The translations under genes and the position numbers were made by a program. A stretch of DNA of 64,000 nt from Vicinamibacterales bacterium (GTDB taxonomy: Bacteria > Acidobacteriota > Vicinamibacteria > Vicinamibacterales > JAMQPK01), in assembly GCA_963832375.1 (NCBI GenBank), contig CAWHUA010000007.1:37069-101068 (forward strand), in the 5' to 3' direction. Of this stretch, positions 12,676 to 43,016 are shown piece after piece; the first letter of the stretch is position 1; each line of letters opens with the position of its first letter. Under the pieces are notes generated by a model. The model saw nothing but the letters and a program-made list of their open reading frames with translations, was not told the DNA's origin and searched no databases.

Positions 12676-13377
12676 ATGGGGCAGGACTCCTTCATCCTGA
12701 CGGATGTGGAGAAGCAGTACGGCGGCCTGAGACCGCTCCGGGTTCGCGACCTGCGCATCCCGGCCGGCACGGTCACGATGATCGTCGGCTTCGATCGCCC
12801 GTCCGCCGAGGTCTTCATCAATCTTGTAACGGGCGCCACGCTGCCGGACAAGGGCGAGGTCATCAGCCTCGGCCGCTCGACCGCCAGCATCGTCAATAGC
12901 GATGAATGGCTGACGTTTGTCGAGCGCTTCGGCATCACCAGCGACCGCATCGCACTGCTCGAAGGCATGACGGTGGCTCAGAACCTCGCCCTTGCCTTCG
13001 ACCTGCACCTCGAACCGGTGCCGCCCGAGACCATGACGCGCGTCACGGCGCTCGCTGCAGATGCCGGCATCACCGCGTCGACGCTCGACATGCGCGTGGC
13101 CGAGGCGCCGCCCCTCGTTCGCGCCCAGGTGTATCTGGCGCGCGCGCTCGCGCTCGATCCCGCCGTGCTCATCCTGGAACATCCCTCCGCCAGCTTGTCG
13201 CCCGAGGAGGGGAGCGCGTACGCAGGAATCTTGAAAGCCGCGGCCGGCCGGCGAGAGCTGACGACGATCGGTCTCTTGATGGACGAGAGGTTTGCGAAGG
13301 CGGCCGGCGGCCGGCTGCTCGTGTGGCAGCCGGCTACCGGTGAAGTGCGCGCGCGCTCTCCGCTGAAGTTCTGGTGA
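12676..13377 (+). CDS. Degenerate ABC-type ATPase-like protein
   Basis: It has an ABC NBD-like layout, but Walker A is GFDRPSAE (no GK[ST]), the LSGGQ position reads APPLVRAQ, and Walker B is VLILEHPSASL (no DE). Confidence 0.55.
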   Translation: MGQDSFILTDVEKQYGGLRPLRVRDLRIPAGTVTMIVGFDRPSAEVFINLVTGATLPDKGEVISLGRSTASIVNSDEWLTFVERFGITSDRIALLEGMTVAQNLALAFDLHLEPVPPETMTRVTALAADAGITASTLDMRVAEAPPLVRAQVYLARALALDPAVLILEHPSASLSPEEGSAYAGILKAAAGRRELTTIGLLMDERFAKAAGGRLLVWQPATGEVRARSPLKFW

Positions 13378-19817: not shown

Positions 19818-19893
19818 GGGCCAGTAGCGCAGTTGGGAGCGCGCATGAATGGCATTCATGAGGTCACCGGTTCGATCCCGGTCTGGTCCACCA
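19818..19893 (+). tRNA. tRNA-Ala (anticodon GGC), CCA encoded
   Basis: Hand-folded cloverleaf. Acceptor is GGGCCAG/CTGGTCC (one G-U pair), D arm GCGC..GCGC, anticodon stem CATGA/TCATG with loop ATGGCAT, and T arm ACCGG TTCGATC CCGGT. Confidence 0.9.
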
Positions 19894-21426
19894 ACCTTTC
19901 ATTTCCATCCTCGATCGTCCGCAAGTAGCTGAAGGCCGGTGCGGTTACGCGGGTTCCAACAAAGCCTTTTCCGTCGAACGCTATTCCGTCCGGAAAGAAG
20001 AGTTGTTGGAACCGCTGACGCTGTTCGAGTGACGCCTGCACCCAGAGGTCGCTGGCGCGCGGCAGAACGCGTTCTGCGAACGCCAGGATGCCCTCTACGT
20101 CGAGTTCATCGAGCTGGCCGGAGTGACGGTCGATCCGGGCGAGCGTGAGTTCCTCGCGTAGTTTTTCGGCGTGACGGTCGTAGGTCTCGATGTCGATCGA
20201 GCGCTCGAAGAGGAACGCCTCGTCCAGACGGTCCAGTTTGTCTTGAATGGCCTTCGCGGCTCGCTCGGCGTTCGCGATCTCCTCACGCACGGCTGCTTTC
20301 CGTGCCTTCCAGATCCGCAGCACGGATTCCTTCAGTAGGCGCATGTAGCCTGGCGTCGGCTGCAGCAGGGCGAGTTCGTCTGCGAACAGTCCTTCGAGCT
20401 TTGCCTTGGTCACGTTCACGGCCTGGCAACCAGGGCGGCAGTGGTAGTAGGCGTAGTACTCGCTGCGGCCCTTGGACCAGCTGCCGGTGAGGCCTCGACC
20501 ACAGGACTCGCAGCGCACGAAGGCGCGCAGTGGGAAGTCCGGGTGCGCCCGCTGCTGTGGCGTCGTGCTGGGCAGACGGCCGGACAGCACCGCCTGCACG
20601 CGGTAGAACAAGTCCTCTGAAATCAGTGGCTCGAAATCACCACGCTTCGCGCGGACGCCGTACTCGGGTACGTTCACGATGCCGGCGTAAAGCCGATTTC
20701 TCAGCAGCGTCCCAATCGCTTGGGACGTCAGCGGACGATTGCGGCGGTTCGTCAGGCCCCAGGCACGGGCCTGCTCGAGCACCTGCTGCTTGGTGAAACG
20801 CCCTGTTGCGTACTCCTCGAATACGCGGCGCACAATGGGCGCGCGTTCCGGGTCGAGCATCAGGCTCTTGCCAATCGCTCGCGGTGCATTCAGATAGCCG
20901 AGAGGCGCTAGGAACACCCACCGCCGAGCTCCAGCGCGGCCTTCATGCCGGCGCGGGTCCGGTCTGAGCGACAGTCGTTGTCGAACTGCGCGAACGCAGC
21001 GAGGACGCCTTCCATCAACTTGCTGGTGGAGGTGTCGTCGATCGGCTCCGTTGCCGACCGCAGCGAGATGCCCAGCGACTGCAGGTGAGAGCGGAGCGCG
21101 AAGTGGTCGTACTTGTCCCGCGCGAAGCGCGTCAGGTTGAACACGACGACGAAGTGCACGCGGCCCTTATTCAGGCGGCAGAAGGTGAGCAGGTTCTGAA
21201 GCTGGCTGCGATCCGTCGTCTTGGCGCTCTCGCCTTCCTCGTGGAAGCGATCGAGCACTTCGTACCCCTGGCGGCGGCAGTACTCCTCGCAGGCGCGCAA
21301 TTGCGTCGGCAGACTCAGATTCTCGGTCTGCTCCTTCGTGCTGACGCGAACGTAGATCACCGCGCCGACCATGGCTGGCAGCGTAGATCCATTCGCAGGC
21401 TCCGACAAGTGTCGTTTCCGAGGCAC
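19856..21426 (-). CDS. Large serine recombinase (integrase), 1-nt frame break near 20920; the 3' end reads into tRNA-Ala
   Basis: The N-terminal resolvase domain is VIYVRVSTKEQ (catalytic Ser) ...FARD. The recombinase/zinc-ribbon domain lies in the second ORF (RCESCGRG...YYHC) followed by a coiled coil. The junction ELGG/WVFLAPLGY needs one extra nucleotide. The last residues TGIEPVTS are antisense of the tRNA T-arm. Confidence 0.8.
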
Positions 21427-21431
21427 GACTT

Positions 21432-21644
21432 CTACTCAGGAATCCGACAGCCTTCTTGGTAGATCTCGACCACGATGCACGCCATCGTCTCCGCGTGTCG
21501 GCGGATCAACGCGACCTCCTGATCGGTCATCGACTCCGCTTCCTCTCCGAGCAGTTCCCGACAGCGCGCGATCGTGATCGGCTCCGGCCCGTCATCCGTA
21601 CGCTCGATGAACTCCATAGGGCGCTCCCAGCGGACGCAAGTCAT
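21432..21644 (-). CDS. Hypothetical small protein upstream of the recombinase
   Basis: 70-aa ORF (possibly starting at the internal MEFIERT). Its stop is 5 nt before the recombinase start, on the same strand. No family is recognised. Confidence 0.4.
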   Translation of the reverse strand: MTCVRWERPMEFIERTDDGPEPITIARCRELLGEEAESMTDQEVALIRRHAETMACIVVEIYQEGCRIPE

Positions 21645-22231
21645 GACGATTCGTGTTGTGCTGGATTGGGCGCTCCAGCGCGCCGGGTGTGCCGGCGCGC
21701 TGATGCCATTGAGCGCAGGTGCGGGCGTAACGCCGACAGCAATACGCGTGACGTGAGGTCGACGCGCTCATCGCGCGAGTTGATTCGCGCTATCGATCAC
21801 GGTGTTGTAGGGGAAGCTGCAACGTTGCCCTGAGGGCGGCGGCTGAAGCGCTCCGTGTCGGGTGCGACTGCGGAGAGGGTGCGCGATGGCACCGACAAGA
21901 TCTTCACGATACGTCTGCCGGCTGTTCGGGTCAATACTGAAAACGGCAACGAGCTTCCTCGGTCATCACATAAGTGCTACCTTCGAGCTGCGCGCAGGCG
22001 TCGTCAAGGCCGAAGCCCGAAGGGTCGAGCGCAGCGAGAGCCTTGACGAGGCCGAGCACAGCTCGACGCTGATCATGTGATGGCCGACGCACTGTGGTTA
22101 CCGTCGCAGAATGTCTGATGAACCTGCAGCGCGATCCACGCGAGATCCGCAAGGTGAACGCAGTGTCAATGCACGTGCAAACCGCGCGCACGTTGCTCGA
22201 ACATTCGGCGAGTGATCGCGACACCGACACC

Positions 22232-22304
22232 GGGGCGTGAGCAACCCCCCGGTGCCGTCCTCGGGACAGGACCCGTCGTAAAAGCGGGGGGTTGCTCACG
22301 CCCC
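22232..22304. repeat. Perfect 20-bp inverted repeat (stem-loop 1)
   Basis: GGGGCGTGAGCAACCCCCCG ... CGGGGGGTTGCTCACGCCCC with a 33-nt spacer. The spacer itself contains GTCC..GGAC. Confidence 0.8.
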
Positions 22305-22663
22305 CGCTCCATCAGTGACGCTCGCTAAGTGCGTTCCGTGCGCGGCACAGAACGCCGCGCTTGGTGTTCCACTTCTCAGCTTGCAAGTCGTCGGTGTGGA
22401 GAGACTTGCGAAAGGCAGCCATCGCAGACACCGGTTCATCGAGCATCGGTTTCGACTGACAACTTGGCGTTCCCGAACTGCGCCAACCACCGCTCTTTGT
22501 CGCGGCCCCCCTCGCGGCGTCAGCCGTTCCGAGTCGGAGTCTGAAAACCAGGGTGGGAAGACGCTCCGGAAAACGCCCCGGTTCAACTCCGAAATGCCAT
22601 CAGGATCTGACCGTCTTGCGGTGCGGTCTGTGCGCGGCGGCGGAGGCGATGACACCCTGCTAG

Positions 22664-22740
22664 CGTGGCGTGAGCGACCTCGGCTGTAGCCGCGGGCATG
22701 ATCACAGACGCGGTCAAATCTCGAAGTCGCTCACGCCACG
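22664..22740. repeat. Perfect 15-bp inverted repeat (stem-loop 2), related to stem-loop 1
   Basis: CGTGGCGTGAGCGAC ... GTCGCTCACGCCACG with a 47-nt spacer. It shares the GGCGTGAGC motif with stem-loop 1. Confidence 0.8.
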
Positions 22741-23138
22741 GTCACCTCTCTGGCGCGGCGATGACCGTGGCGACGGCGAGCGGTCGGCAACACACGCCGA
22801 CCGCGTGCTCGGGACGAGAAGCCTCCATCGCACATCTGCTTGCAGCGGCCGACAGAAGAACGTGAAGGCCGGTTGGCTCCAATCAGATCGGCGCGGGACA
22901 GCTCGGGAGAGGGGGAACACCCCGCGTTGGGCCCTGTTCCCCTCGACGCATTCCCTCGCGGCGTCAGCCGTTCGCCACGGCTAGCGCAAGCCAGGGGAGA
23001 GAGATGACGGCTGCTCAGCTCGCTTCTCAGGGCCTTGTCTTCCACTCTCAGAACGTTCACCAAGCTCGTCGACCTCCCGGTCTTAGGACAGTCTTAGGAC
23101 GGGTAGCAGGTGCTACGATCGGCCTCGAAGACGCTGCC

Positions 23139-23396
23139 ATGCCGACGTTTCCTGAATGGTGGAGCTGGAACCTTTCGTTCACCAGCCATGCCGAGTTGAG
23201 GATGGAGCAACGTGGTGTGACCGAGGTCGAGGTCCGCGCTATGCTGGAGAAGGCGACTGGGTTCCAGCCCAACGTTGTTGAGGGCAGATTCATGATTCAC
23301 GTCCGCCACCTGCAGAGCCTGTGGATCGTGATCGTCGAGCCAGATGCCGACGCCAAGCTGCTTGTCGTCGTGACCGTCTACGAGGTGTCCGAATGA
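23139..23396 (+). CDS. DUF4258-like protein (putative toxin component)
   Basis: 85 aa from ATG 23139. It has the motif SHAELRMEQRGVTEVEV typical of DUF4258. Its stop overlaps the next start (ATGA). Confidence 0.6.
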   Translation: MPTFPEWWSWNLSFTSHAELRMEQRGVTEVEVRAMLEKATGFQPNVVEGRFMIHVRHLQSLWIVIVEPDADAKLLVVVTVYEVSE

Positions 23397-23665
23397 CCGA
23401 GCGGTCGCTACAAGTCACTTACAGGAAGGGCCGGGCCTTCGCGGCGTATTTGCATCTGTCCCACGCGACGGGTGAGAAGAGCGCGAAGACCGTGGCGTCG
23501 CCCGACGGACTTCTCATCGTCGACTACGGCGCGACTGGTCGCCCTGTCGGAGTCGAGATCACATCGCCCCAGGCTGTCCCGCTTGAGCGGCTGAATCAGC
23601 TGTTGGCCGAACTCGATGAGGCGCCTTTGGCCGAACAAGACTACAAGCCGGTCCTAGCCGCATGA
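23393..23665 (+). CDS. DUF2283-like protein (putative antitoxin component)
   Basis: 90 aa. AAYLHLS...GLLIVDYGATGRPVGVEI is the DUF2283 pattern. It is translationally coupled to the upstream ORF. Confidence 0.55.
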   Translation: MTERSLQVTYRKGRAFAAYLHLSHATGEKSAKTVASPDGLLIVDYGATGRPVGVEITSPQAVPLERLNQLLAELDEAPLAEQDYKPVLAA

Positions 23666-23709
23666 ATTTCTGGCACGGAGTACTTGCCGCAGTCAGGACA
23701 AGGTGAGTC

Positions 23710-24372
23710 ATGGCCACTGATCGTTGCGCAATCGCGGCCTTGGCTGTCAGCATGTTCCTGCTCGGATCGGTAAGGGCGCAGGATCAACTCGTACCGTTTC
23801 GAGATCCAAGCCAGGGACAGTGGGGTTACAAGCGACCAGATGGAAGCATCGCGATTACCCCGCGTTATCTGGGCGCTGGTGTCTTTCGCGAAGGGCAAGC
23901 ACCGGTTAGAGATGGTGACGGGTTTGCGATGATCGATGGCACAGGACGGGTCGTGCAACGGATCGTGGTCGACTCCGTGTCGGCATCCGCGGTGCCTATC
24001 CCGCCTCCCGCCGACGAGTGCGCCTGGTCCGCATCAGCGCCATTCCCAAGTACCGGACTCCAGTGTTATGTCCGCCAATTGCGTGGATCAGCGGCAGTGA
24101 TCGGAGGCGAGATCACTGTCAGGCCGTCCGGTGGGGAGTCGTCGCGCTCCGCGGTGATCCTGAAGTTTCCGAGCGGCGTTGTGGTAGTTGAAGACATCGG
24201 CTACGAAGGTTTCACGAGGCGTGTGCTCCTTCCCGGTGTGAGCCCCAACCAGGCGCACCAGTGGCGACTGAAGCTTTATCCAGATCGAGCGGCAAAGGTT
24301 GGATGCTCGGAATCGTGGAAGGCCGGTGTCGTTCCGGGCGGTGCATTAATCGAGCAAGTTGCTGGGTGCTAG
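23710..24372 (+). CDS. Secreted WG-repeat protein
   Basis: 220 aa with a signal peptide (AIAALAVSMFLLGSVRAQ). It has WG-type repeats (GQWGYKRPDGSIAITPRY, GFAMIDGTGRVV). Confidence 0.6.
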   Translation: MATDRCAIAALAVSMFLLGSVRAQDQLVPFRDPSQGQWGYKRPDGSIAITPRYLGAGVFREGQAPVRDGDGFAMIDGTGRVVQRIVVDSVSASAVPIPPPADECAWSASAPFPSTGLQCYVRQLRGSAAVIGGEITVRPSGGESSRSAVILKFPSGVVVVEDIGYEGFTRRVLLPGVSPNQAHQWRLKLYPDRAAKVGCSESWKAGVVPGGALIEQVAGC

Positions 24373-24378
24373 CTGAGT

Positions 24379-24700
24379 TCACGCCCAACTCTGTCCGACT
24401 TGGAGCGTCTCAACCCGTCTGAGCCATTTGTCGATCAGGTTCCAACTGGCGAAAATCTGGTCCACCAACTCCAAGTCGTTGATTCTACACGACTGAAATC
24501 GCCTACCCACGCCGTAGATCGAACCGCTGTGACCAGGTCGTGAGGCTGCTGAAGTGCGTCAACTGTGCAGCAGTCTTCGAGCCGTTGCGTTCCATACCGA
24601 GTTCGGACTTTTGAGCCCCGGCTGCACGTCTTCGAACGACGCCCTCGGATGCGCGTCGAACAAACCGCCGCCTTCAGCCTCTCGGCCACCTCACCGCGCG
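24379..24700 (-). pseudogene. Serine recombinase 3' relic (several frame breaks)
   Basis: The tail INDLELVDQIFASWNLIDKWLRRVETLQVGQSWA-stop is at 24379-24480. Upstream fragments in other frames (AERLKAA, SQRF) parallel AERAAKA and RQRFQQL of the full-length copy. Confidence 0.55.
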
Positions 24701-24859
24701 CCTGTAAGTATGCGCCGCACCAACACTTGCGGATCTTGCGAATTTTCTTGGCTAAGGCGACTTCTCGATGATGCCGGTTTGAGAGCGCGGTGCTCGCAGA
24801 CAGTCACCCCCCGGAAATATTTTCTATCGTCGACGAGCATCTAGCAGAAGTGCCTTCGC

Positions 24860-26807
24860 TCAGCGGTAGAAAGGTTGCCAGGTGAGCCACCTGGGACCGT
24901 AATGGGGAACCGGAGCCCCCACTTCCAGGGCACCGAAGTCCGGGGCCTTTCCCGTGAAGACTTCGCTCACGGTTGGAATGACGACGCCGGCATCAACGAC
25001 TTTGCTCGTCGGCTTCAGTGTGAAGTTCAGATCCATCGCGTGATAGACGGCGTGACGCTGATCGGGGTTGGGAGGAGCGAGTCTCTCGAAGATGTCGAAA
25101 TCCACTTCCAGGCTGTGCGCCTCCTGGTCAGTGGCCGCCGCGAAATCCGAGAGCGTCTGGAACGTCTGCCAGTCATCGTCCGACGGTTCGTAGCGACGCT
25201 GCCCTTTCTTCGGGCCGAGAAACGCGTACTGATCCTTCACGCCTTTGTTCGGGCGATACCCGTTGTAGTCCGTGCTGAAATCGTCGGTCGCATTCGCGAG
25301 GCGGAGAACGCCGCGGCCGGGCGTGTCGCGGCCGAGGTACAGGTTGTTCCGGAAGTGCATATTGGCTGAAGGATCCCCGACGATGTGCTCTCCGATGATG
25401 GTGTTGTGGTAGACGAACAGCCCGGCTGGTTTCGCGCTGAACTTGAACGCCACTCCGCTCGGGACGTGATAGAGGATGTTGCGAATGAAATAGACGGGGC
25501 CGCCGAACGCGGGCTGTGCGCTATAGCCGCCGTGCGCCGCATTGACGCCGCGGTTGTTGAAGACGCGGACGTTATGGACGGCGCCGTCTGTCTCGACGAA
25601 ATCGTCGCCCATCATATGAATGTCGTTGTTGTAGATGTCGATGGACGAGGCGCGGCGTTCGGGATCCTGTTCGGGCGTGCCGTACGTGGAAATACCGATC
25701 CCATCGTGGAAATAGGCAATCGCATTGTGAGCAATGACGTGGCCGGGCCCGTACACCTTCACCGCGTAGTAGCTCTTGAGTAAATGGGAGCCGTATGGAC
25801 CCGCGCTGGCCCACAGCGGTCCGGTCCAGCCGACGAGACGAAAGCGATCGTCGCGCCCGAGGAACAGGTTGTCGGCGATGTAGAAATCGCTGGAGCCGGC
25901 GTACTCGGTCCACACACCCGCGCCCACATTTTCGAACCGACAATTCTTCACCGCGAGACCGACTGCGCCGAGAACCTCTTTCTGACCGGCGAAAATGGCG
26001 ACGTCGGTGTTGCGGAACGTGAGGCCCTCGAAAATGTGATGGCTCGAGGCCATGACGTCGAACAAACGCGCATTGCCGTCGCCATCGAAGATGACTTCAC
26101 CGTCGCCGCCCCCTTTGATGGTGATGGGCTTCTCTTTGGTGCCCTTGAGCGTCAGCGACATTGAACCGTCGAACGGCGTCATCATCGGATCGACGTAGTT
26201 GAACCGTTCTGGTTTGTAGAGGCCGACGTGGACGACGATGGTGTCGCCGGGTCTGGCGCGGCGCTCCCACACGACGCTCCAATCGCCGAGACCCGCGCCG
26301 TAGTACGCCTGGAGGACGCTGGTGAAGCTGGGCTCGAGTCTCTCGCCCTTGTGGTCTGGCGGGTAGACGTGGAGGATGCGCCCTTCGTTGGACGGCATGG
26401 GTTCGGTACGCGTGGTGACCCTGGCGACGTGGGTCGTCTGACCGGTGGCGCCGTCGGGGTCTGTGAGCTGGAACCGGCACTCGGTACTCGGTTCCGGGTA
26501 AGAGATTCAGGATGGAGCCGGCGAAGCCGTCGGGAACGGTGTAGTCGAGATTCTCGCGGCGGCGGTAGACGTTCTCGCCGCCAATCCGAACCAGCGGGAG
26601 CGCATTGCGCCACGCTGTTTCGCCAACCGCCCGGAATTGCACGCTGACGCTCGCATTGCGGTTGGCGTCGCCGTTGATCGCCCATTCGAACCCGGCGTTC
26701 AGCAGCGTCGGGTGCTCGACATGGAAACGGCCGGCCTCGGTCGAGTTCTGGACCTGAAGAGCGGCGGCCAGAAGCAGCGTCGATGTAAAGAGGCTCATGG
26801 CCGGCAT
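24860..26807 (-). CDS. Secreted FN3-like + right-handed parallel beta-helix protein; 1-nt frame break at 26483
   Basis: It has a signal peptide (MPAMSLFTSTLLLAAALQ) and an N-terminal domain ending LLPGTEY. The next frame continues ECRFQLTDPDG...MPSNEGRILHVY, then beta-helix-like repeats (NNDIH, FNNRGVN, YHNTIIG, FRNNLYLG). There is an RBS before ATG 26807. Confidence 0.65.
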
Positions 26808-26938
26808 CTTACACCTTCCATCGACTGTGCCCTGGCGCGAGGGCTCAGGCGTCCAGAGTTGATCCGCGATGGCCATCGGTTGCTCTCTCAGGGAATCGGA
26901 CATACGCGACAGTCCGCTGTGGGACGCGCCGACAATCG

Positions 26939-26952
26939 GTTGGTGGTCCAGA
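26939..26952. repeat. Inverted near-copy (13/14) of the att core
   Basis: GTTGGTGGTCCAGA compared with the reverse complement of the core, GTTGGTGGACCAGA. It lies in the divergent intergenic region. Confidence 0.3.
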
Positions 26953-27063
26953 TTGGTCCCAGCATGCACCAGGCTTGTGGTATACAGTGTGCCCGGCAAT
27001 GCTAGTGCAGTGGAATTCAAGGGCTGCGCCACGAAAGTGATCGCGCAACAAGGAGTGTCACGT

Positions 27064-30000
27064 ATGCGCCGCGATTCGCTGTTGGTTGTGCTGTGCTGCA
27101 TCGGTGTCTGGACGCTGTCGACCATGGTGGCTACCGCTCAGATCGCCGCGACGTCCACGGTTCGTGGCGAAGTTGCGGACTCCAGTGGAGCTGCTCTGCC
27201 GGGGGTCTCCGTGACGGCGACGCTCGTGAGCACGAAGGGTGACTACCGCACGGTCACGAATCGCGAGGGCTCATATGTCCTGACCGGGCTCAGGCCAGGC
27301 GAGTACATCGTCACATTCGAGCTGGCCGGTTTTTCCAGGCTCGATCGCGCGGGAGTCCGCCTCGAAGTCAACGAGCAGGGCCGCGTCGACGTGGTCATGC
27401 AGGTCGGTGCCCTCAGCGACGCGGTGACGGTCGTGGGCAACTCATCGGTTGTGCAGACCTCCAACGCGACGCTCCAGACGGTCGTGGACTCGCGACGCCT
27501 CGTGGATCTACCTCTGAATGGCCGCCAGGCGCTGCAGTTGCAGGCGCTGACGCCCGGGGTGGTGCAGGTCAACGAGGGGCAGGCGGCCAGTGGGATTGCG
27601 GTGAACACCCGCTTGAGCTTTTCGATCAACGGATCCCGCCCCAATGGCTCGAGCTACTACCTCGACGGCGGCATCAACATGGACATGTATAACAACCTGT
27701 CCACTTCGTTCCCGAATCCAGATGCGCTGCAGGAGTTCAGCGTGCTGGCCAACAGCTATGGCGCAAACTATGGCCGCAGCGCCGGCGGTGTGATCAACAT
27801 GGTGACGAAGTCCGGAGCCAACAACTTCGGCGGTTCGGCCTATTACTTCCGCCGCGACGATGCCCTCAACGCCAAAAACTACTTTTCGCTGACGAAGCCA
27901 GAGTTGAGCCGGAATCAGTACGGCGGCACGATCGGAGGCCCGGTGCTGCGCAACCGGACGTTCTTCTTCACCTCATATGAAGGCATGCGGGAGAAGAATG
28001 CGCGCACGCGCTCGGATATCGTGGTGCCGACCGAGGCGGAGCGTCGCGGAGATTTCTCCCAATCGCCGCTCACCTCTCCGGTGGTGGATCCGGCGACGGG
28101 CACGCCGTTTCCCGGCAACCAGGTACCCGCTAACCGGCTCGACCCGGTCGCTCTACGCTTCGCCACCGCGTTTCTGCCGCTGCCGAACGGTCCTGGCAAC
28201 ACCTACATCTACAACCGGTTAATCCCGACCACTAACGACCAGTTCGTTGTCAGGGTCGACCATACCCTGTTCGAAGGCAACCGCCTCACCGCCCGGTACT
28301 TCTACGACAACTTCGCGCGCGAGAACAACGCCGCGCTGTTGGCCTTCAACAGCGAGAATCGCTGGAGAACCAAGAACTTCACGGTCTCCGACTCGCACAC
28401 CTTCGGTTCCCGCGTCGTCAACACCGCCACGGTGACCTACGCGAAGAACCCGTTCGTCCGTTCGCCGCTGTCGACCCCGGACGCCAAGGACTGGGCGGCG
28501 CTCGGGTGTGTGTCGTGCAACCCCACGTCGCCCCCCGGCGAGCCAACCGACTGGAATGTGAACATCGCCCGAGGCCTCAACGTGCGGGTCGACACGGCGT
28601 TCCAGAGCTACATGACGAATCTGCATGTCGTCGACACCCTGAGCTGGGCCACCGCAGACCACCTGGTCTCCGTCGGTGGTGAATTCGGCCGCTTCGAACG
28701 CGAGGGTCACGAATACTTCTCGGCCGCGCCCACGTTCGCATTCGACGGATTGCGCAGCGGCTCGGGATGGGGCTACGCCGATTTCTTCCTGGGCGTGCCC
28801 CGCAGCGTCACTCAAAACAGCCCTCTCAATAGCGTCACCAGCCGCCTCAACGTGGCCGCCTACGTGCAGGACGACTGGAAGGTCGCCGACCGTCTGACGG
28901 TGAATCTCGGCTTGCGTTACGAGCCGTTCCTGCCCATCAAAGAAAAAGACAACAAGCTCAGCGCCTTCCGCGAAGGCCAGCAGTCGACGATCTATCCGCT
29001 TGCGCCGAAGGGCGTGCTGTTTCCAGGCGACGCCGGAATCGGTCGAGGGATCGTCTCGTCGCAGCAGAAGGTCGCCCCTCGAGTCGGCGTGGCGTACGAT
29101 CCGCGCGGGGACGGCAAGGCCAGCGTCCGCGCCGCCTACGGCGTGTTCTACGACACCATTCGGCTGGTTGCCCTCAACACGAACAACCTCAACCAGCCCT
29201 TCACCCTGGGCGTCACGTCATTCGATCCGTTCAGCCTCACCAATCCCTACCTCGGCAAGGAAGCCACGCTTGCGCTGCTCCAGGGGTACACGTCGCCCAG
29301 CCCTGGCTCAGAGGCTACACGGAGCTTCTTCCTGCCCGTCCGGGCCAATTCGATCGACCCGAACTTCGAGCCCCCGTTGACCCATCAGTGGAATGTCAGC
29401 GTGCAGCGGGAACTGCCGCTGCAGTTGACGGCGACGATCGCCTACGTTGGGACGCGCGGCCGCCATCTCCTTGTCGGGCAGGAGATCAACCCGGCCGTTT
29501 ACATTCCGGGGGCCTCGACCGCCGGCAACGTGGACGCACGGCGGATTCACCAGGGCTTCCAGTCTATCCAGAACACCCAATCCACGGGCCGTTCCGACTA
29601 CGACGCGCTGCAGTTCAGCTGGAACAAGCGTTTCTCGCGTGGATGGTCCGTGCTCGGCTCCTATGTGTTCTCCTCGTCGAAGGACATCACCTCGAACGAT
29701 GGCAACAGCGGAACCGGCAACAGTTCCTCGAACCCTCGCGATCCAGAGGCAGACTACGGGCCATCGGACTTCGACGTACCGCACCGCGTCGTCGCGTCCT
29801 TCATCTGGGAGCTGCCGTTCTTCAATAGTGGCAACGGGGCAGCCCGCGCTTTGCTGGGCGGGTGGCAGGTGAACGGCATCGTGACGATGCAGTCGGGCAC
29901 GCCGTTCTCGCCGATGGCCGGCCAAAACCGCAGCCTGGTCGGCGGTGGGGGAGACCGGGCGGACCTCATCGGCAACGCGCAGGTGTTCAGCGACCGATCG

Positions 30001-30321
30001 CAGAGCGACCAGGTCAATGATTACTTCGACACGACGGCCTTCGGCCTGCCGGCGCTCGGCACGTTCGGCACTGCCGGGAGAAATTCCCTTCGCGGTCCTG
30101 GCTACTCGAATACGGACATGACCATCCAGAAGCTGTTCCGGATGGCGGACGAGCGCGCCCTCGAGGTGCGGTTCGAGGTCTTCAACCTGTTCAATAATCC
30201 CAACTTCGCCAGTCCGAACAACCAGTTCTGTTCGAGAACCGTGGCCTCCTGCAATTTCGGCCGGCTCACCTCGGCCCGAGATCCTCGGATCATGCAGGTC
30301 GGCGCCCGATTCCGGTTCTAA
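27064..30321 (+). CDS. TonB-dependent receptor with N-terminal carboxypeptidase-regulatory-like domain
   Basis: 1085 aa from ATG 27064 (RBS AAGGAG). It has a signal peptide and the block VRGEVADSSGAALPGVSVTA..TNREGSYVLTGLRPGEY, then plug blocks (FSINGSRPNGSSYYLDG), and it ends in GARFRF. Confidence 0.85.
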   Translation: MRRDSLLVVLCCIGVWTLSTMVATAQIAATSTVRGEVADSSGAALPGVSVTATLVSTKGDYRTVTNREGSYVLTGLRPGEYIVTFELAGFSRLDRAGVRLEVNEQGRVDVVMQVGALSDAVTVVGNSSVVQTSNATLQTVVDSRRLVDLPLNGRQALQLQALTPGVVQVNEGQAASGIAVNTRLSFSINGSRPNGSSYYLDGGINMDMYNNLSTSFPNPDALQEFSVLANSYGANYGRSAGGVINMVTKSGANNFGGSAYYFRRDDALNAKNYFSLTKPELSRNQYGGTIGGPVLRNRTFFFTSYEGMREKNARTRSDIVVPTEAERRGDFSQSPLTSPVVDPATGTPFPGNQVPANRLDPVALRFATAFLPLPNGPGNTYIYNRLIPTTNDQFVVRVDHTLFEGNRLTARYFYDNFARENNAALLAFNSENRWRTKNFTVSDSHTFGSRVVNTATVTYAKNPFVRSPLSTPDAKDWAALGCVSCNPTSPPGEPTDWNVNIARGLNVRVDTAFQSYMTNLHVVDTLSWATADHLVSVGGEFGRFEREGHEYFSAAPTFAFDGLRSGSGWGYADFFLGVPRSVTQNSPLNSVTSRLNVAAYVQDDWKVADRLTVNLGLRYEPFLPIKEKDNKLSAFREGQQSTIYPLAPKGVLFPGDAGIGRGIVSSQQKVAPRVGVAYDPRGDGKASVRAAYGVFYDTIRLVALNTNNLNQPFTLGVTSFDPFSLTNPYLGKEATLALLQGYTSPSPGSEATRSFFLPVRANSIDPNFEPPLTHQWNVSVQRELPLQLTATIAYVGTRGRHLLVGQEINPAVYIPGASTAGNVDARRIHQGFQSIQNTQSTGRSDYDALQFSWNKRFSRGWSVLGSYVFSSSKDITSNDGNSGTGNSSSNPRDPEADYGPSDFDVPHRVVASFIWELPFFNSGNGAARALLGGWQVNGIVTMQSGTPFSPMAGQNRSLVGGGGDRADLIGNAQVFSDRSQSDQVNDYFDTTAFGLPALGTFGTAGRNSLRGPGYSNTDMTIQKLFRMADERALEVRFEVFNLFNNPNFASPNNQFCSRTVASCNFGRLTSARDPRIMQVGARFRF

Positions 30322-30344
30322 GAGCGTATGCTCGACGCGACGGC

Positions 30345-30626
30345 ATCGGGGCCGCGAGCTGTTCTATCTCGACGCGTCGAATGTGCTCACCGCTGTGCCG
30401 GTCAGCACATCCGAACCGACGATCAGCATCGGCAGTCCGGCGAAGGTGTTCGACACCAAATATGCTGAGCCAAATCCCTCGCCGCCATTACGACGTGTCG
30501 GCCGACGGCCAGCGATTCCTCGTGCTCAAAGCCAGCGCAACCGGCGATCCGAACGCGACGCCAGTCAGCATGGTCCTCGTCGAGCACTGGTTTGAGGAGT
30601 TGAAGCAGCGTGTGAATGGAAAGTGA
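30345..30626 (+). pseudogene. 3' fragment of a TolB-like beta-propeller (kinase-family C-terminus), frameshifted
   Basis: GRELFYLDASNVLTAVPVS...KVFDTKYAEPNPS is followed, in another frame, by RHYDVSADGQRFLVLKASATGDPNATPVSMVLVEHWFEELKQRV. This parallels the ends of the kinase paralogs (YDVSADGQRFLMMK...VVQNWLAELRRLV). Confidence 0.7.
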
Positions 30627-30649
30627 AACGAAGCCATTCTTCCGCGGGT

Positions 30650-31228
30650 TCATTGGAGCCCATCGATCTGCCGTAGCCAAGACGCGATCCGGTTCCAACT
30701 CGCGAACATCTGGTCCACCAACCTCCGCTCGCCCTTCGGGCAAGCTTCGGATGGCAAGCCAAGCGAGCTTTCCAGTAAGCGAAGGATATCCACCATAGCG
30801 GCGAAGCCGCGAAGGCGGACCGTTGGCAAGCCAACCGTCGCCACAGCCAGCCGGACGTGACTCCCAAGTGCATCGTCTACGTTCTAAAGAGTGAGAAGGA
30901 TCCGCGCCGCTACTACGCTGGGCTGACGTCGAATCTAGGTGACGAGGTCAAGGTGCGCATTCCGGTGGAGCCACCTCCGCAGGATTCGCACGGGCGAAGG
31001 CGCGCAAACGCCGCACTCCGGCACGTCCACGATCCCGAAGTAGAGCTGATTGCGCAGCATCACCCCAATCGCTTGCGACGTAAGCGGACGATGCCGGCGG
31101 TCGTCAGGCCCCACGCGTGTGCCTGATCGAGCACTTGTTGCTTGGTGAACGCCCCCGGTGGCGTACTCCTCGAATACGCGGCGCAGAAGCGGGGCCAGAC
31201 CCGCTACAATCTGCCTCGTCAGTAACCG
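30650..31228 (-). pseudogene. Serine recombinase relic (tail + core + decayed body)
   Basis: The tail ERRLVDQMFASWNRIASWLRQIDGLQ-stop is at 30650-30733. At 30950-31200, RRVFEEYATG...RPLTSQAIGVMLRNQLYFGIVDVPE matches RRVFEEYATG...RPLTSQAIGTLLRNRLYAGIVNVPE of the full-length copy. The resolvase domain is absent. Confidence 0.7.
30857..30934 (+). pseudogene. GIY-YIG nuclease N-terminal fragment
   Basis: KCIVYVLKSEKDPRRYYAGLTSNL matches the GIY...YIG N-terminal motif. The frame then runs antisense into recombinase relic sequence. Confidence 0.45.
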
Positions 31229-33967
31229 ATGGCTCTTTTCCCGGGGACGCGCCTCGGCCCATACGAGATTCTCTCCGCCCTCGGCGCCGGCGGGATGGGC
31301 GAGGTGTACCGAGCGCACGATACGTCGCTTGGGCGCGACGTCGCGATCAAGATCCTTCCCGACACCTTCGCGCACGATCCTGAGCGACTGGCCCGCTTCG
31401 AGCGCGAGGCCAAGACCCTCGCTGCGCTAAACCATCCCAACATCGGGCATATCTACGGTCTGGAGGCATCCGACGGGACCAAGGCGCTGGTGCTTGAGCT
31501 GGTCGAAGGACCGACACTCGCGGATCGGATTGCGCAGGGTCCGGTCCCGCTCGACGAGGCGCTGCCCATCGCGCGCCAGATCGCCGAGGCTCTCGAAGCC
31601 GCGCACGAACAAGGCATCATCCACCGCGACCTGAAGCCGGCCAACGTGAAAGTGCGCGACGACGGCACGGTGAAGGTGCTGGACTTCGGCCTCGCGAAGG
31701 CGCTCAGCGGAGACGGGAGCGGATCCGTCGCAACACCGCTATCGCACTCGCCCACGATCACGAACCTGGCTGGGATGACTGGCGTTGGCGTTTTGCTCGG
31801 CACGGCGGCGTACATGTCGCCTGAACAAGCAAAGGGCAGACAGGCGGACAAACGCAGCGACGTCTGGGCGTTCGGCTGCGTGCTCTACGAGACGCTGACC
31901 TGCAGGCGCGCGTTCGAAGGCGAGGATATCAGCGACACGCTTGCGGCGGTGCTGCGCGGGGAGCCGGATTGGACGGCGCTGCCCGCCGACGTCCCGCGTT
32001 CCATCCGTACGCTGCTCACGGGATGTCTCGCCAAAGACCGGCGACACCGCATCGCAGATCTGTCGACGGCGCTCTTCGCGATCGATCATCACGCGGATCT
32101 GTCGGCGTCCACTCCTGCAGTTCCGCTTGCGCCGCATGTTCCAGTCTGGCGCAAGGTGATGCTTGTCGCCATTCTGATTTTCGTCGCGATGGCCGCTGCC
32201 TATGGCGGCTGGAGGCTGAAGCGCGTGGCTCCGCCCGCGGTCGCGCGCTTCGAGATCGCGCTGGGCGCCGGTGACACGCTGACTGGTCCGTTCGCGTGGT
32301 CCCCGGACGGCACACGACTGGCCTATTCAGTCAACGACCGTCTCTATTTGCGCTCATTCGATCAACTCAACGCGACGCAAGTCGCGGGCGGCGATAGTCC
32401 TTCCCTCGCGAGCCCGAGATCGCCGTTTTTCTCACCCGACGGGCAGTGGCTCGGGTTCTGGGAAGCGGGACAACTGAAGAAAGTGTCAGTCAGCGGTGGT
32501 GCGCCGGTCACGCTGTGTACCGTACGTCCGCCGCCGTCCGGCGTGACGTGGGCCGACGACAACACGATCTTTTTCGGACACGGCGTCGGGGGAATCTGGC
32601 GGGTGTCCGGAAATGGCGGAACGCCTGAACGCATCATCGCGCTCGAGGCAGGCCAGCGTGCTCATCGGCCGCAGCTGTTGCCCGACGGCCGAACAGTGTT
32701 ATTCACGCTTGCGGCGACCGCGAATTGGGATGAGGCGCAGATTGTCGTCCAATCACTCGACAATGGAACGCGGCAGACACTCGTCGCTGGAGGCACCGAG
32801 GGCCGCTATCTGACCACGGGGCATCTCGTCTATGCGTTCGGCAACAGCCTGCTGGCGGTGCCGTTCGATGCGGCTTCCCGCTCTGTCAGCGGAGGACCGG
32901 TGCCGGTGATCGAAGGCCTGCTGCGATCGGGCCCGTACGCGTTCTTTGCGGTGCCCTCGCGTGCGGCGACGCTGGCGTACTTGCCTGCTGCAAGCCGCAC
33001 ACAGGCGCGCCGGACGCTCGTGTGGGTCGATCGCGGCGGGCGCGAAGAGACCATCCCGGCGGAGCCGCAATCGTACGTGCATCCGCGACTCTCACCAGAC
33101 GGGACACGACTCGCGCTGACCTTTCCGGACGAGAAACAGAACGTGGACATCAGGGTCTGGGAGTTTGCAACCCGAACGTGGACACGTGTCACTTCTGAAC
33201 CCGCCAACGACGGCGAGCCTGTGTGGACGCCGGACGGGCAGCGACTCATATTCACTTCGCTCCGCACTGGCGTCATTGGTCTGTTTCGCCAGGCGGCGAA
33301 CGGAACCGGCACAGCCGAACAGTTGATCGATCTCAATCGGCAAAACTCCCCGCAGCCCGCGATATCGCCGGATGGCAGACAGGTCCTTTTGCGCGACTCG
33401 GAATCGGGCAGCTCCTACGTGTTGATCGCGGACCTGGAGCCTGTGCAGCGCGGGGGCCAGACGTCTTCAAGTGGCGAGGGTAAGCCGAGGCCACTCGTGA
33501 AGACGGAGTTCGAAGAGTACAACGCCGAGATCTCGTCCGATAGCCGATGGCTGGCGTACCAGTCGAACAGGTCCGGTGCCTTCGAGGTGTACGTGCAGCC
33601 GTTTCCGGATGTGGAGAATGGTCGCTGGACCGTTTCCACGGCCGGCGGCGCCGAGCCGCTCTGGTCGCGCGACGGCCGCGAGCTCTTCTATCGCGCTCCC
33701 AGCGGCGCCGTGATGAGCGTTTCAATTGCTCCGGGATCGACGTGGAAAGCGAGCGCGCCGACACAGCTCTTCATAGCGACGTCGTACGCGCTCAGCGGGA
33801 GCGGCGACCTCAGAGGCCTGTCGCGTACATACGATGTTTCTCCTGACGGCAAGCGATTTCTCATGCTCAAAAACGCCGATGCGCCGGCCCAGACCTCCGT
33901 CGCCCCGCGGATCGTCATCGTGCAGAACTGGCATGAAGAGCTGAGGCGGCTGGTGCCGGTGAACTGA
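31229..33967 (+). CDS. Ser/Thr protein kinase - TM - TolB-like (PD40) beta-propeller, paralog K1 (intact)
   Basis: 912 aa with [23 protein letters not shown] and SPEQ. It has one TM segment (VMLVAILIFVAMAAAYGGW), then repeated xSPDG blocks (FSPDGQWLGF, LSPDGTRLAL, WTPDGQRLIF). Confidence 0.9.
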   Translation: MALFPGTRLGPYEILSALGAGGMGEVYRAHDTSLGRDVAIKILPDTFAHDPERLARFEREAKTLAALNHPNIGHIYGLEASDGTKALVLELVEGPTLADRIAQGPVPLDEALPIARQIAEALEAAHEQGIIHRDLKPANVKVRDDGTVKVLDFGLAKALSGDGSGSVATPLSHSPTITNLAGMTGVGVLLGTAAYMSPEQAKGRQADKRSDVWAFGCVLYETLTCRRAFEGEDISDTLAAVLRGEPDWTALPADVPRSIRTLLTGCLAKDRRHRIADLSTALFAIDHHADLSASTPAVPLAPHVPVWRKVMLVAILIFVAMAAAYGGWRLKRVAPPAVARFEIALGAGDTLTGPFAWSPDGTRLAYSVNDRLYLRSFDQLNATQVAGGDSPSLASPRSPFFSPDGQWLGFWEAGQLKKVSVSGGAPVTLCTVRPPPSGVTWADDNTIFFGHGVGGIWRVSGNGGTPERIIALEAGQRAHRPQLLPDGRTVLFTLAATANWDEAQIVVQSLDNGTRQTLVAGGTEGRYLTTGHLVYAFGNSLLAVPFDAASRSVSGGPVPVIEGLLRSGPYAFFAVPSRAATLAYLPAASRTQARRTLVWVDRGGREETIPAEPQSYVHPRLSPDGTRLALTFPDEKQNVDIRVWEFATRTWTRVTSEPANDGEPVWTPDGQRLIFTSLRTGVIGLFRQAANGTGTAEQLIDLNRQNSPQPAISPDGRQVLLRDSESGSSYVLIADLEPVQRGGQTSSSGEGKPRPLVKTEFEEYNAEISSDSRWLAYQSNRSGAFEVYVQPFPDVENGRWTVSTAGGAEPLWSRDGRELFYRAPSGAVMSVSIAPGSTWKASAPTQLFIATSYALSGSGDLRGLSRTYDVSPDGKRFLMLKNADAPAQTSVAPRIVIVQNWHEELRRLVPVN

Positions 33968-36667
33968 TGACGCTGATTCCGGGTACGCGCCTCGGCCCGT
34001 ACGAGATTGTCGCCGCTCTCGGCGCCGGCGGGATGGGTGAGGTGTACCGCGCCCGCGACACGAAACTCGATCGCGCGGTCGCGATCAAGATCCTCCCCGA
34101 ATCCTTCGCGCACGATCCGGAGCGGCTCGCCCGCTTCGAGCGGGAAGCGAAGACGCTCGCCGCGCTGAATCACCCCAACATCGGCGGCATCCACGGCCTT
34201 GAAGAATGCGAGCGGCGTGCACCGCCCTCGTGATGGAGTTGGTCGAGGGCGAGGATCTGGCGCAGCGCATCGCGCGAGGCGCGATCCCGCTCGACGAGGC
34301 GCTCGCCCATCGCGCGGCAGATCGCGGACGCGTTCGAGGCCGCGCACGAGCAAGGGATTATCCACCGCGATCTCAAGCCAGCCAACGTCAAGGTGCGGCC
34401 CGATGGCACGGTGAAGGTGCTGGATTTCGGCCTGGCCAAGTCGCTGGAGCCGGCTGGCGTCGTCGTCGAGCGTCTCGCAGTCACCGACGATCACGACGCC
34501 CGCGATGACTCAGGTAGGGTCATTCTGGGCACCGCCGCCTACATGGCCCCGGAGCAGGCGAAGGGAAAGCCGGCGGACAAACGCAGCGACATCTGGGCGT
34601 TCGGCTGCGTGCTCTACGAGATGCTGACCGGCGCGCGCGCCTTTGCCGGCGAGGATGTCAGCGACACGCTGGCGGCCGTGCTGCGGGGTGAGCCCGATTG
34701 GCGCTCGTTGCCGGCCGAGACACCCGCGTCGATTCGGCGATTGCTGCGGCGCTGTCTCGAGAAGGATCGGAAGCGCCGGCTCTCGGATCTCGCCGATGCG
34801 CGGCTGGAGATCGAGGACGCCTTGACGCCGCCGGCGTCCGACACACCGCCGATGCCAACAGCCGGTACGCGCGAACGCATGGCGGCGCGCGGCAATGATT
34901 GCTGCCGCCGCTCTTGTCGTCGGCGGCGCGGCGCGGGCATCGCCGTCTGGATCGCGATCCGCCCTGCTCCGGCGCGGATGGTGCGAACGTCGATCCAGAC
35001 GTCGGGCGCAACGGCGCTCGTGACGAACCCGGGAGCGGCAGGCAGTCTCGCCATCACGCCCGACGGCTCACGGATCGTGTACACCGCGGCCGGCCAGCTC
35101 GTCGTGCGTCGCCTGGATCAATTCGAGCCGGACGCGCTCACTGGTCTGGGCTCGCCCACGCAACCGTTCATCTCCCCCGACGGTCAGTGGGTGGGATTTT
35201 TCGACGGGATGGTTCTCAAGAAGGTGGCGATTACCGGCGGGCCGCCGGTGACGGTGGTCCAGGACAATACCCCCAGCGGCGGGCCCTTGGGCGCCACCTG
35301 GAGTGCCGATGGCACGATCGTGTACGCAGGGGCCATCGGTGGTGGATTGAGACGGGTCGCGGCCGCGGGCGGTCAGGCCGAAACGCTGACGACGCCCGAC
35401 CGAGCGCAAGGTGAGGTCAGACACGTCTGACCCGAGTTTCTGCCGGACGGGCGGGCGTTGCTCTTCACGATTTTTTACGCGATTCCGGGGCCCGAGGGCG
35501 CCCGGATTGCGCTGTTGGACTTGGCGACCGGCGCAACGATCGTGCTGCTCACTGGGACCCACGCGCGGTATCTGCCATCGGGCCACCTTGTGTATGGAAC
35601 GGAGGGCACGCTCCGCGCGGTCGCGTTCGACCTCGAGCGGCGGGCCGTGGTCGGAGCCCCAGTGCCGCGTTCTCGCCCCGGTAGCCAGGCACCAGAGCCA
35701 GGCACGTATGAGTACGACGTAGCCGACAATGGGACGATCGTGTACCTGGCGGAGAACATCGCGTCGCCGGCCACACGCACGCTGGTGTGGGTCGATCGGC
35801 AAGGCGGTGAGACGCCGCTCGGCGCCGAGGCCCAGCCTTACGTCCACCCCCGGCTGGCGCCCGACGGCACGCGCGTGGCCGTCCTCAATGCCGGAAATAT
35901 CTGGATCTGGGATCTCGCGCGCGCGAGGCTGACCGCCGGAACGCTCGACGGTGGCGACCATTTCGATCTGGACACCCGACAGTGCGCGTCTCATCTTCAG
36001 CTCGATCCGCGGCGGCGGCGGCGCGAATCTCTACCTGCAGGCGGCCGACGGCACCGGGACGGTCACGCGGCTGACCGACAGCCCGAATACCCAGCACCCG
36101 ACCGGCTTCACATCTGATGGCACGCAGGTCGTCCTCAACGAATCGACGCCCACCCAGCAGGGAGACATCCGGCTGCTGACGCTGACCCCGACGCCGCAGG
36201 TGACGCCGCTCGTCGAGACGCGCTTCGACGAGCGGGGCGGCGTCGTGTCCCCGAACGGCCGCTGGCTGGCGTACGAGTCCAACAGGTCAGGTGCGTACGA
36301 AATCTACGTGCAGCCCTTTCCCGTCGTGGATGGCGGTCTGTGGCCGGTCTCGACCGCCGGCGGATCGCAACCGCTCTGGGCGCGGAGCGGGCAGGAACTG
36401 TTCTATGTGGCGCCCGACGACGCGTTGATGACGGTGGCGGTGGAGGCGCGGGGATCAGTCTGGTCGGCCGCCGCGCCGGCCCGACTGCTCGAGGGACGGT
36501 ACTTCAGCGGTGGGCGGGGGACCACGGTGCGCCAGTATGATGTCAGCGCGGACGGGCAGCGATTCCTGATGATGAAGGAAGAAGCGAGAGACAACGACGC
36601 GGCTCCGACGATCAACGTCGTGCAGAACTGGCTAGCGGAGCTGAGGCGGCTGGTGCCGGTGAACTGA
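33967..36667 (+). pseudogene. Kinase-propeller paralog K2, multiply disrupted
   Basis: It has the same architecture as K1. Frame breaks lie near 34222, 34306, about 34450, 34517 and 35961, and there is an in-frame TGA at 35428-35430 (GEVRHV-stop-PEFLPDG). It shares start/stop overlaps with K1 and K3. Confidence 0.75.
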
Positions 36668-39351: not shown

Positions 39352-39397
39352 CACGTGCAGGCCAGGTAAGGCGGGTAGGTCAAGTAGGTCGAAGCCG

Positions 39398-42767: not shown

Positions 42768-42779
42768 ATCGTAGAGACC

Positions 42780-43013: not shown

Positions 43014-43016
43014 TCG

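Follow-up and report, generated by a model that had tools for sequence, protein, structure and literature searches.

What becomes of a recombinase whose own gene spans the site at which it recombines? The question is raised by a 64,000-nt stretch of DNA from a Vicinamibacterales bacterium (contig CAWHUA010000007.1, positions 37,069–101,068; hereafter the window, at its full length), in which the gene of a large serine recombinase (LSR) runs toward a tRNA-Ala(GGC) gene from the right and overlaps it by 38 nt. Taken as a whole, the evidence is likely best explained by an LSR gene that spans the crossover, with integration swapping the native C-terminal tail of the enzyme for residues read from the tRNA; the function of this swap is one that we infer. 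The features on which the argument depends are the following.

19818–19893, plus strand: tRNA-Ala(GGC), putative B arm and core of the attachment site (ARAGORN)
19856–21426, minus strand: LSR gene, with the putative P′ arm at its 3′ end (Pfam, tblastn)
19856–19893, minus strand: putative replacement tail (DQ)TGIEPVTS and stop, the final 38 nt of the LSR open reading frame (ORF), stop codon included, which read the tRNA T-arm and anticodon stem in antisense
19882–19896, no strand assigned: 15-nt core TCTGGTCCACCAACC, common to the left element end (attL) and the three relics below (alignment)
24379–24471, minus strand: relic 1, putative P arm with the orphan tail LVDQIFASWNLIDKWLRRVETLQVGQSWA and stop (24379–24468), plus core; attR-type end of unit 1
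30650–30724, minus strand: relic 2, putative P arm with the tail LVDQMFASWNRIASWLRQIDGLQ and stop (30650–30721), plus core; end of unit 2
43405–43500, minus strand: relic 3, putative P arm with the tail LVDQMFASWNRIHRWMRCLEALRQETGPVE and stop (43405–43497), plus core; outermost array junction and end of unit 3
31001–31195, minus strand: decayed recombinase remnant of unit 3, LSR residues ~196–260 (direct repeat D15; tblastn 60% identity, E = 5e-17)

The tRNA-Ala(GGC) is the single tRNA called by ARAGORN in the window and is still intact after the insertion. Its 25-nt 3′ part occurs only once in the window (0 matches expected). The 3′ part of the LSR gene is a 353-aa ORF (19856–20917, minus strand) carrying the Pfam Recombinase (PF07508) and Zn_ribbon_recom (PF13408) domains, and the 5′ part encodes a resolvase catalytic domain of 172 aa (20908–21426; PF00239 Resolvase, E = 7e-34 on 20911–21426). 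The 353-aa ORF ends in ...NERLVDQTGIEPVTS, that is, LVDQ followed by TGIEPVTS and a stop codon (19856–19858) localised in the tRNA anticodon stem. The LVDQ codons (19883–19894) are the antisense of the tRNA 3′ acceptor strand and CCA, and the TGIEPVTS codons are the antisense of the T-arm.

A six-frame scan of the window found LVDQ three further times on the minus strand, each time followed by an [I/M]FASWN... tail, and an alignment showed ~70 nt common to these three relics (repeat family D12). Only the relic at 30.7 kb adjoins a recombinase remnant. We interpret the relics as element-end junctions and not as three decayed recombinase genes.

The same arrangement was found throughout a large family. 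Database relatives of the 353-aa ORF number >2000, and most of them come from soil metagenomes and metagenome-assembled genomes of Vicinamibacterales and Luteitalea. Among the 120 closest homologues, most end in LVD[QL]TG[IVF]EPVTS, and a minority have the motif xxx[SR]WNxxxxW[LM]xxxxxx[RQ]xAA behind LV[DA]Q, with W[LMF] also allowed. We surveyed 80 related genome loci with 10-kb flanks, together with the window, by ARAGORN, tblastn and six-frame motif searches, which gave 83 LSR C-termini. The LSR stop codon lay inside an opposite-strand ARAGORN tRNA in 55 of the 83, and the ORF was uninterrupted in 45 of these 55 tRNA-fused LSRs. Their target tRNAs were Ala-GGC (37), Lys-CTT (13), Lys-TTT (1), Glu-TTC (3) and Val-CAC (1). 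About 13 further C-termini bore T-arm-type tails (…G[IF]EP…) at contig ends or beside uncalled tRNA remnants, and five of the 83, four of them distinct, carried a tail with the Ser-Trp-Asn (SWN) motif. The LSR copy proximal to the tRNA had a tRNA tail in every case.

Orphan tails without a recombinase were found, typically 4–9 kb upstream of tRNA-fused LSRs and in the same orientation (L003, L005, L006, L007, L010, L017, L037 and others). Each consists of the core followed by xxxSWNxxxxWLxxxxxLRxAA and a stop codon. The residues encoded by the core change with the target tRNA (LVDQ for Ala, VTLN for Lys, LASP for Glu and LVAL for Val), and the tail behind the core is constant; it is kept across subfamilies that target four tRNAs and whose enzymes are only ~66–70% identical. 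This layout, with tRNA, core and P′ at one end (attL) and P, core and B′ at the other (attR), is the one expected if the core of the free-element site (attP) lies inside the last codons of the recombinase. By this comparison, the elements of the window appear to belong to a widespread family of ~5–8 kb integrative elements of Vicinamibacterales (Acidobacteriota) moved by an LSR.

One site was identified in two states on three metagenome contigs. The contig L129 and the contigs L152 and L124 are 98.8% identical over 1385 nt, and the shared stretch ends in …GGAGATGGTGGACCAGA (also given as ...ATGGTGGACCAGA and ...TGGTGGACCAGA), with the divergence at the core. Past the core, L152 and L124 enter tRNA-Ala (CCGGGATCGAACC…), and L129 enters a P arm encoding NSASWNQIAPWLKRLDALRIAA and a stop codon. 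The divergence at this point is what the swap model predicts.

By sequence comparison, attP consists of a P arm, the core and a P′ arm, in which the P′ arm is formed by the last recombinase codons and the core by the last ~12 nt of the tRNA, translated as L-V-D-Q. The P arm encodes the native 22-residue C-terminal tail, xxxSWNxxxxWLxxxxxLRxAA and a stop codon. Recombination at the tRNA 3′ end keeps the tRNA intact and fuses the LSR ORF to the T-arm antisense (8 residues, TGIEPVTS, and a stop), and the native tail is left stranded at the far end of the element, in attR. Excision, or the arrival of another element next to it, would rejoin gene and tail in frame. The part of the tail beyond the attachment site evolves as protein. 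The tailed enzyme would be made only from a free or attP-form element. The enzyme of a free element, with its tail, would have to integrate, and that of an integrated element, with its tRNA stub, would have to excise.

The structural part of this reading, a core in the 3′ coding end of the LSR gene and an exchange of tails, is well supported by the comparative evidence. The original prediction, made from the window alone, had described a tRNA-adjacent ORF ending in LVDQ-TGIEPVTS with its stop at 19856–19858 inside the tRNA, and three relics with LVDQ followed by mutually conserved tails; coordinates and translation agree with the former, and the six-frame scan and the ~70-nt alignment with the latter. 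From these it had tentatively placed the crossover inside the coding end of the enzyme, with the native tail exchanged for 8 tRNA-encoded residues. The 55 of 83 C-termini that end in a tRNA and the orphan tails 4–9 kb upstream bear this out, and the two-state site, the in-frame rejoining of tails at array junctions and the purifying selection described below lend it further weight.

SWN-tailed LSRs occur in the genome loci only at internal junctions of tandem arrays, which have the attP-like order P-core-P′. In L013 an SWN-tailed LSR is followed by a tRNA-fused LSR, in L034/L036 two SWN-tailed LSRs are followed by a tRNA-fused LSR on one contig, and in L039 an SWN-tailed LSR is followed by a 5.8-kb unit without an LSR and then by the tRNA. 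At each of these junctions the P arm of the neighbour restores the tail in frame. A further case comes from the metagenome contig L127, which carries an intact SWN-tailed LSR and an orphan tail in a 12.9-kb island with 52-bp tRNA-Asn 3′ repeats at 25–76 and 12897–12948, and which appears from this layout to be one element nested in another island. The initial expectation that tailed forms would be confined to plasmids or circles was thus too simple, since SWN-tailed LSRs are found at chromosomal array junctions and once inside an island. Retention of the tail by integrated elements had been named as the observation that would count against the swap; such retention exists, but only trivially, at the attP-like array junctions, whereas the tRNA-proximal copies are all tRNA-tailed.

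Units without a recombinase, 0.9–6 kb long and bounded by cores and SWN tails, were also identified (L018 330–3100; L124/L152, 1.1 kb; L123/L132, 2.3 kb; L039 11607–17389). Some form tandem runs, such as the four tails within 3 kb in L018. Such units are possibly non-autonomous elements mobilised in trans.

The tail frame is held to a fixed length and is under purifying selection. The length from the first core codon to the stop is exactly 26 codons in 32 of 45 non-identical tails, and 24 of the 45 end in AA before the stop; in a random frame at 64% G+C, the chance of a stop at exactly that codon is ~0.015. For the 32 gap-free tails, the pooled Nei–Gojobori ratio of nonsynonymous to synonymous substitution (dN/dS) was 0.30 in frame, compared with 1.5 and 1.2 in the two shifted frames. 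In the same tails W15 is invariant, and the hydrophobic positions have T fixed at codon position 2 and position 3 free. In 13 of 37 orphans an in-frame stop codon lies within 30 codons (<=30) upstream of the core, which indicates that the tail alone is kept open.

The conserved residues W9, I12, W15-L16, L19, L22 and A25-A26 are spaced three to four apart, like one face of an amphipathic helix. The AlphaFold2 (AF2) model of the SWN-tailed homologue P0100 (58-sequence alignment; mean predicted local distance difference test (pLDDT) score 72) shows the LSR domains and a long coiled-coil, with long helices at 357–406 and 411–434 C-terminal to the zinc ribbon. The tail itself follows a low-confidence linker (491–519) and is modeled as a helix at 517–534 with pLDDT ~65. 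From spacing and model together, the tail may be a functional amphipathic helix on a flexible linker.

These data bear directly on the alternative that attP merely overlaps the last recombinase codons, as is often the case in tRNA-targeting elements, and that the swapped residues are dispensable and the exchange neutral. The position of the tail behind a low-confidence linker and outside the folded domains would be compatible with this, as would the intact appearance of 45 of the 55 tRNA-tailed enzymes, which implies that the core enzyme tolerates loss of the tail. A neutral overlap does not, however, account for the fixed length, the AA ending, the invariant W/N/W and hydrophobic positions or the dN/dS value against values above 1 in the shifted frames, nor for the persistence of one tail across subfamilies with four target tRNAs and divergent enzymes. 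We think this alternative unlikely.

A second alternative is that the segment is conserved as DNA, as an extended P arm to which the recombinase, or an accessory or directionality factor, would bind. A DNA-level role is indicated over part of its length. The S-W-N codons, AGT TGG AAC, are unchanging at the nucleotide level with third positions included, a sign that these codons are also constrained as DNA. In the MAFFT alignment, the tRNA arm and the relic arm are offset by a gap of 5 nt. In a register test covering shifts of −2 to +10 with 29 Ala-type P arms, the tRNA arm (…ACCAGACCGGGATCGAACC) and the P arm (…ACCAGAACAGCGCCAGTTGGAACC) matched best at a +5-nt shift, with 8.66 of 14 positions matching and other shifts giving <=6.2. 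The SWN codons are at the same time a T-loop-like DNA motif, whose distance from the centre exceeds that of GATCGAACC in the tRNA arm by 5 bp. In phiC31, the zinc-ribbon domain sits 5 bp nearer the centre on attB than on attP (phiC31 cryo-electron microscopy study). Taken with this rule, the +5 register suggests that the T-loop region of the tRNA acts as the B half-site, to which the SWN-coding DNA is the P counterpart. The LSR family appears to recognise the near-universal GTTCGA T-loop sequence, and such recognition would explain how sister lineages switch among tRNA-Ala, -Lys, -Glu and -Val.

The conserved small protein of the neighbouring gene, described below, could also bind DNA. A binding site explains the tail poorly beyond this point, however. 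LSR attachment sites measure ~40–50 bp (phiC31 cryo-electron microscopy study), whereas the tail reaches ~70 bp from the site centre. Codons 12–26 lie >25 bp from the site centre and beyond a normal 40–50-bp LSR site. Their column entropies in the 32 gap-free tails were 1.13, 0.86 and 1.54 bits for codon positions 1, 2 and 3, respectively, with most variation at the third position and least at the second. This, together with T at position 2 of hydrophobic codons, a free position 3 and a fixed stop, is the pattern of a coding sequence and not of a binding site. Conservation of the whole segment as DNA is accordingly quite improbable.

The identity between attL and attR within one locus extends over 9–12 nt and begins at the last tRNA base, and tails with a VAQ core mismatch the tRNA at core position 7. 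Together with the point of divergence between L129 and L152, these limits place the crossover most likely in TGGTGG, the last six tRNA bases (minus strand, about 19888–19893). The palindrome TGGT-CC-ACCA of the Ala core was considered as evidence for a central dinucleotide and dropped, since it is not kept in the Lys core (TGGTGAGCC).

The tails fall into two classes. One, NSASWN...LRxAA, occurs mostly with the LVDQ core; the other, IFPRWNPLTSWMRQIEDFQRAA, occurs with the core variant VAQ and is nearly identical across many contigs.

It could also be supposed that attR itself gives rise to orphan-tail micropeptides of ~25 residues, initiated at TTG or GTG in the core, making the recombinase a split protein whose tail acts in trans. 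The cores do contain possible starts (TTG/GTG in the Ala type, GTG/ATG/CTG in other subfamilies), GGAGG lies just upstream in some orphans, and the orphan frames stay open. The GGAGG is only 0–3 nt from the candidate start, however, and the sequences upstream of orphan cores form several unrelated classes with no common promoter or ribosome-binding context. At array junctions, moreover, the same tails continue the reading frame of recombinase genes. We consider expression as micropeptides very unlikely. That the relics are ordinary dispersed repeats or chance similarity, with no link to recombination, is suggested by nothing except their short length and is scarcely credible given the same architecture, orientation and spacing in dozens of independent loci, a core that co-varies with the tRNA and the existence of an occupied/empty polymorphism; a reading of the relics as independent small genes was likewise rejected.

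Several observations weigh against the proposed exchange of tails. In the window, the LSR gene is frameshifted by one base lost in GAGCTCGGC[C]GGTGGGTG at 20915–20931, which leaves the resolvase domain and the remainder in different frames; the protein P0003 correspondingly matches it in tblastn as two high-scoring segment pairs, in frames −2 and −1. From its sequence, the gene would be either a pseudogene or the product of an assembly error. The tails of the three relics have 23, 29 and 30 codons and do not show the canonical ...LRxAA end with its stop. With its frameshifted recombinase and off-consensus relic tails, the local system looks like a fossil. In the family, the internal SWN-tailed copies of the genome loci are all N-terminally broken, and uninterrupted SWN-tailed LSRs amount to 0 of 5 in genome loci and 9 of 48 among LSR-linked metagenome junctions; the tailed enzyme is therefore seldom seen intact. 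A degenerate pattern search for the LSR-core-SWN junction gave no match in viral contigs, and 89 metagenome stretches matched the same pattern. Terminal repeats were present in 0 of the 80 metagenome contigs examined with this junction, and no excised circle was found among them; for the contigs with full-length SWN-tailed LSRs (L001, L002, L111, L119/L127 and L143), circularity could not be shown. The tail helix is of moderate confidence only in the AF2 model, and comparison of the arms revealed no convincing mirror image of the P-arm motif in the P′ arm. Finally, tandem arrays imply insertion beside an already occupied tRNA (attP with an attL-like site), which is unexpected for canonical LSRs.

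With regard to the remainder of the locus, the window appears from its junctions to hold three units in tandem at tRNA-Ala(GGC), an array now decayed, together with a conserved small ORF.

21435–21620, minus strand: 61-aa helical-hairpin ORF directly upstream of the LSR gene (tblastn, AF2)
19894–24456, 4.6 kb: unit 1, with the frameshifted LSR, the 61-aa ORF and a DUF4258 gene overlapped by a 114-aa ORF
24469–30709, 6.2 kb: unit 2, with a TonB-dependent receptor and a beta-helix protein
30722–43485: unit 3, with the LSR remnant and paralogous Ser/Thr-kinase-PD40 propeller genes

The 61-aa ORF has 599 homologues; tblastn matched it in 87 loci, in every one of them directly upstream of the LSR gene. 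AF2 predicts two helices for its product (pLDDT 85), and no match was found in Pfam, in PHROGs or, by Foldseek with the AF2 model, in the PDB. It is a candidate directionality factor or regulator.

The DUF4258 protein of unit 1 and the overlapping 114-aa ORF (23004–23665, plus strand) are kept together in ~10 related elements, and our guess is that they form a toxin–antitoxin pair. In unit 2, the TonB-dependent receptor-like outer-membrane barrel of 1150 aa (26869–30321, plus strand) and the beta-helix protein (24860–26398, minus strand) are either cargo or captured chromosome. The paralogous Ser/Thr protein kinase and PD40 beta-propeller genes of unit 3 (31229–42623) recur with a ~2.7-kb period; in places, overlapping shorter ORFs replace one long gene, and some copies may be interrupted.

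Two classes of sequence flank the cores. On the non-tail side of some, a flank of ~65 nt reads ...RF.S.RI[NK]DLE in the recombinase frame (window 24469–24535, L015 2125–2219, L124/L152, L126, L027, L005 and L020), and in L124/L152 it directly adjoins the tRNA. This flank could represent either the native B′ arm or, in units that lack a recombinase, their P′ end. The second class, ...AMVGNLRL.HERR, lies beside other cores, including the window relics at 30.7 and 43.5 kb and those in L001 and L017. Beyond the array, window segments 47444–49515 and 55376–56231 have their homologues in L019 and L039 on the far (tRNA) side and with the relative orientation reversed; either a rearrangement around the tRNA-Ala locus or merely the different synteny of distant genomes could account for this. 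Among the fetched loci, the search for an empty site matching the window flanks gave only partial, rearranged synteny.

What the tail might do can be approached from the state in which it is selected. Selection can reach the tail only via the free form, and the most likely role of the tail is accordingly to serve or license integration. Without it, the activity or the directionality of the resident enzyme would most likely be altered, a functional reading that we regard as plausible and that has indirect support in the purifying selection on a piece of coding sequence separated from its gene during most of the life of the element. The integration state would then be recorded in the enzyme reversibly and covalently, by analogy with the IntP and IntX forms of the Mx8 integrase considered below. 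Serine integrases normally take their direction from a separate directionality factor that acts on the coiled-coil. If this reading is true, an enzyme that rewrites its own C-terminus as it recombines would be a second, self-contained discriminator between the free and integrated states. In phiC31, the extreme C-terminus contacts the recombination directionality factor (cryo-electron microscopy study), which makes an effect of the tail on directionality conceivable. By this analogy, the tail could be a built-in directionality switch, with the helix holding the coiled-coil and zinc ribbon in an integration-competent state or blocking a directionality factor, and the tRNA stub leaving the enzyme excision-competent or quiescent. 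We put this forward tentatively, as a possibility that is rather doubtful. Were it true, the element would write its own integration state into its recombinase without a separate sensor.

Across hundreds of loci in a phylum abundant in soil, the arrangement is both conserved and selected, and an LSR family targeting tRNA 3′ ends via the universal T-loop is unusual in itself. The elements, their attachment sites and both enzyme forms are defined well enough for synthesis. If the tail controls direction or activity, they would offer a compact module for one-way or state-reporting integrases; if its role is minor, the family would still be the serine-recombinase counterpart of the Mx8 IntP/IntX pair.

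In canonical serine integrases, attP lies outside the integrase gene, and integration leaves the enzyme unchanged. They usually target protein-coding genes and not tRNA 3′ ends. Crossover takes place at a 2-bp central dinucleotide, through concerted double-strand cleavage, and excision needs a separate recombination directionality factor. The enzymes described here share with phiC31, Bxb1 and LI/A118 the resolvase, recombinase and zinc-ribbon domains, the long coiled-coil and the 5-bp displacement of the half-site motif between attB and attP. The top Foldseek matches of the P0100 model were LSR–DNA complexes (9dxh, 9iu2 (Bxb1), 9rah (phiC31) and 4kis), at 15–17% sequence identity. Domain content, fold and the 5-bp register rule thus identify the enzyme as a member of the LSR family. 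The block of identity between its attachment sites spans 9–12 bp, whereas canonical LSRs have a bare dinucleotide.

Other systems place an attachment site within a gene. The SSV1-type archaeal integrase is a tyrosine recombinase with attP in its gene, and integration splits that gene into two large parts and inactivates it. In the family described here, in contrast, a single ORF retains every catalytic and DNA-binding domain, and only the last ~22 residues are exchanged. In the integration-dependent immunity of mycobacteriophages, which use a tyrosine integrase, attP lies in the repressor gene, and integration alters the C-terminus of the repressor and thus its activity or stability. There the repressor is rewritten, whereas here it would be the recombinase itself. 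Similarity in target and layout is found in tRNA-targeting islands and tycheposons, which likewise insert at tRNA 3′ ends, carry direct repeats of the tRNA end and accrete in tandem. These are overwhelmingly based on tyrosine recombinases; according to the tycheposon text, a minority, in Prochlorococcus, encode an LSR, and that text reports no exchange of recombinase tails.

The original prediction had cited analogous principles of this kind, which are indeed known, and had missed a closer one. In the myxophage Mx8, as described in the review PMC6070905, attP lies inside the int coding sequence, and integration gives int a new 3′ end and its product a different C-terminus (IntP and IntX). The altered Int has changed recombination properties and is not destroyed, and the change is termed a "reversible, covalent modification" (PMC6070905, citing Tojo 1996 and Magrini 1999). 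The family described here has the same two features, an attP core in the integrase coding sequence and a different C-terminus when integrated (TGIEPVTS and stop in place of the SWN tail). The Mx8 Int is, however, a phage tyrosine recombinase, whereas the present enzyme is an LSR of small non-phage elements. Also unlike in Mx8, the swapped part here is a short conserved helix, as predicted, replaced by antisense tRNA, and the arrangement is kept across subfamilies and at least four tRNAs. Full-text literature searches returned no serine integrase with attP in its own gene and no LSR family dedicated to tRNA 3′ ends. By these comparisons, the LSR is an analogue and not a member of the Mx8 system; Mx8 IntP/IntX is its closest precedent, and none was found among serine integrases in the literature searched.

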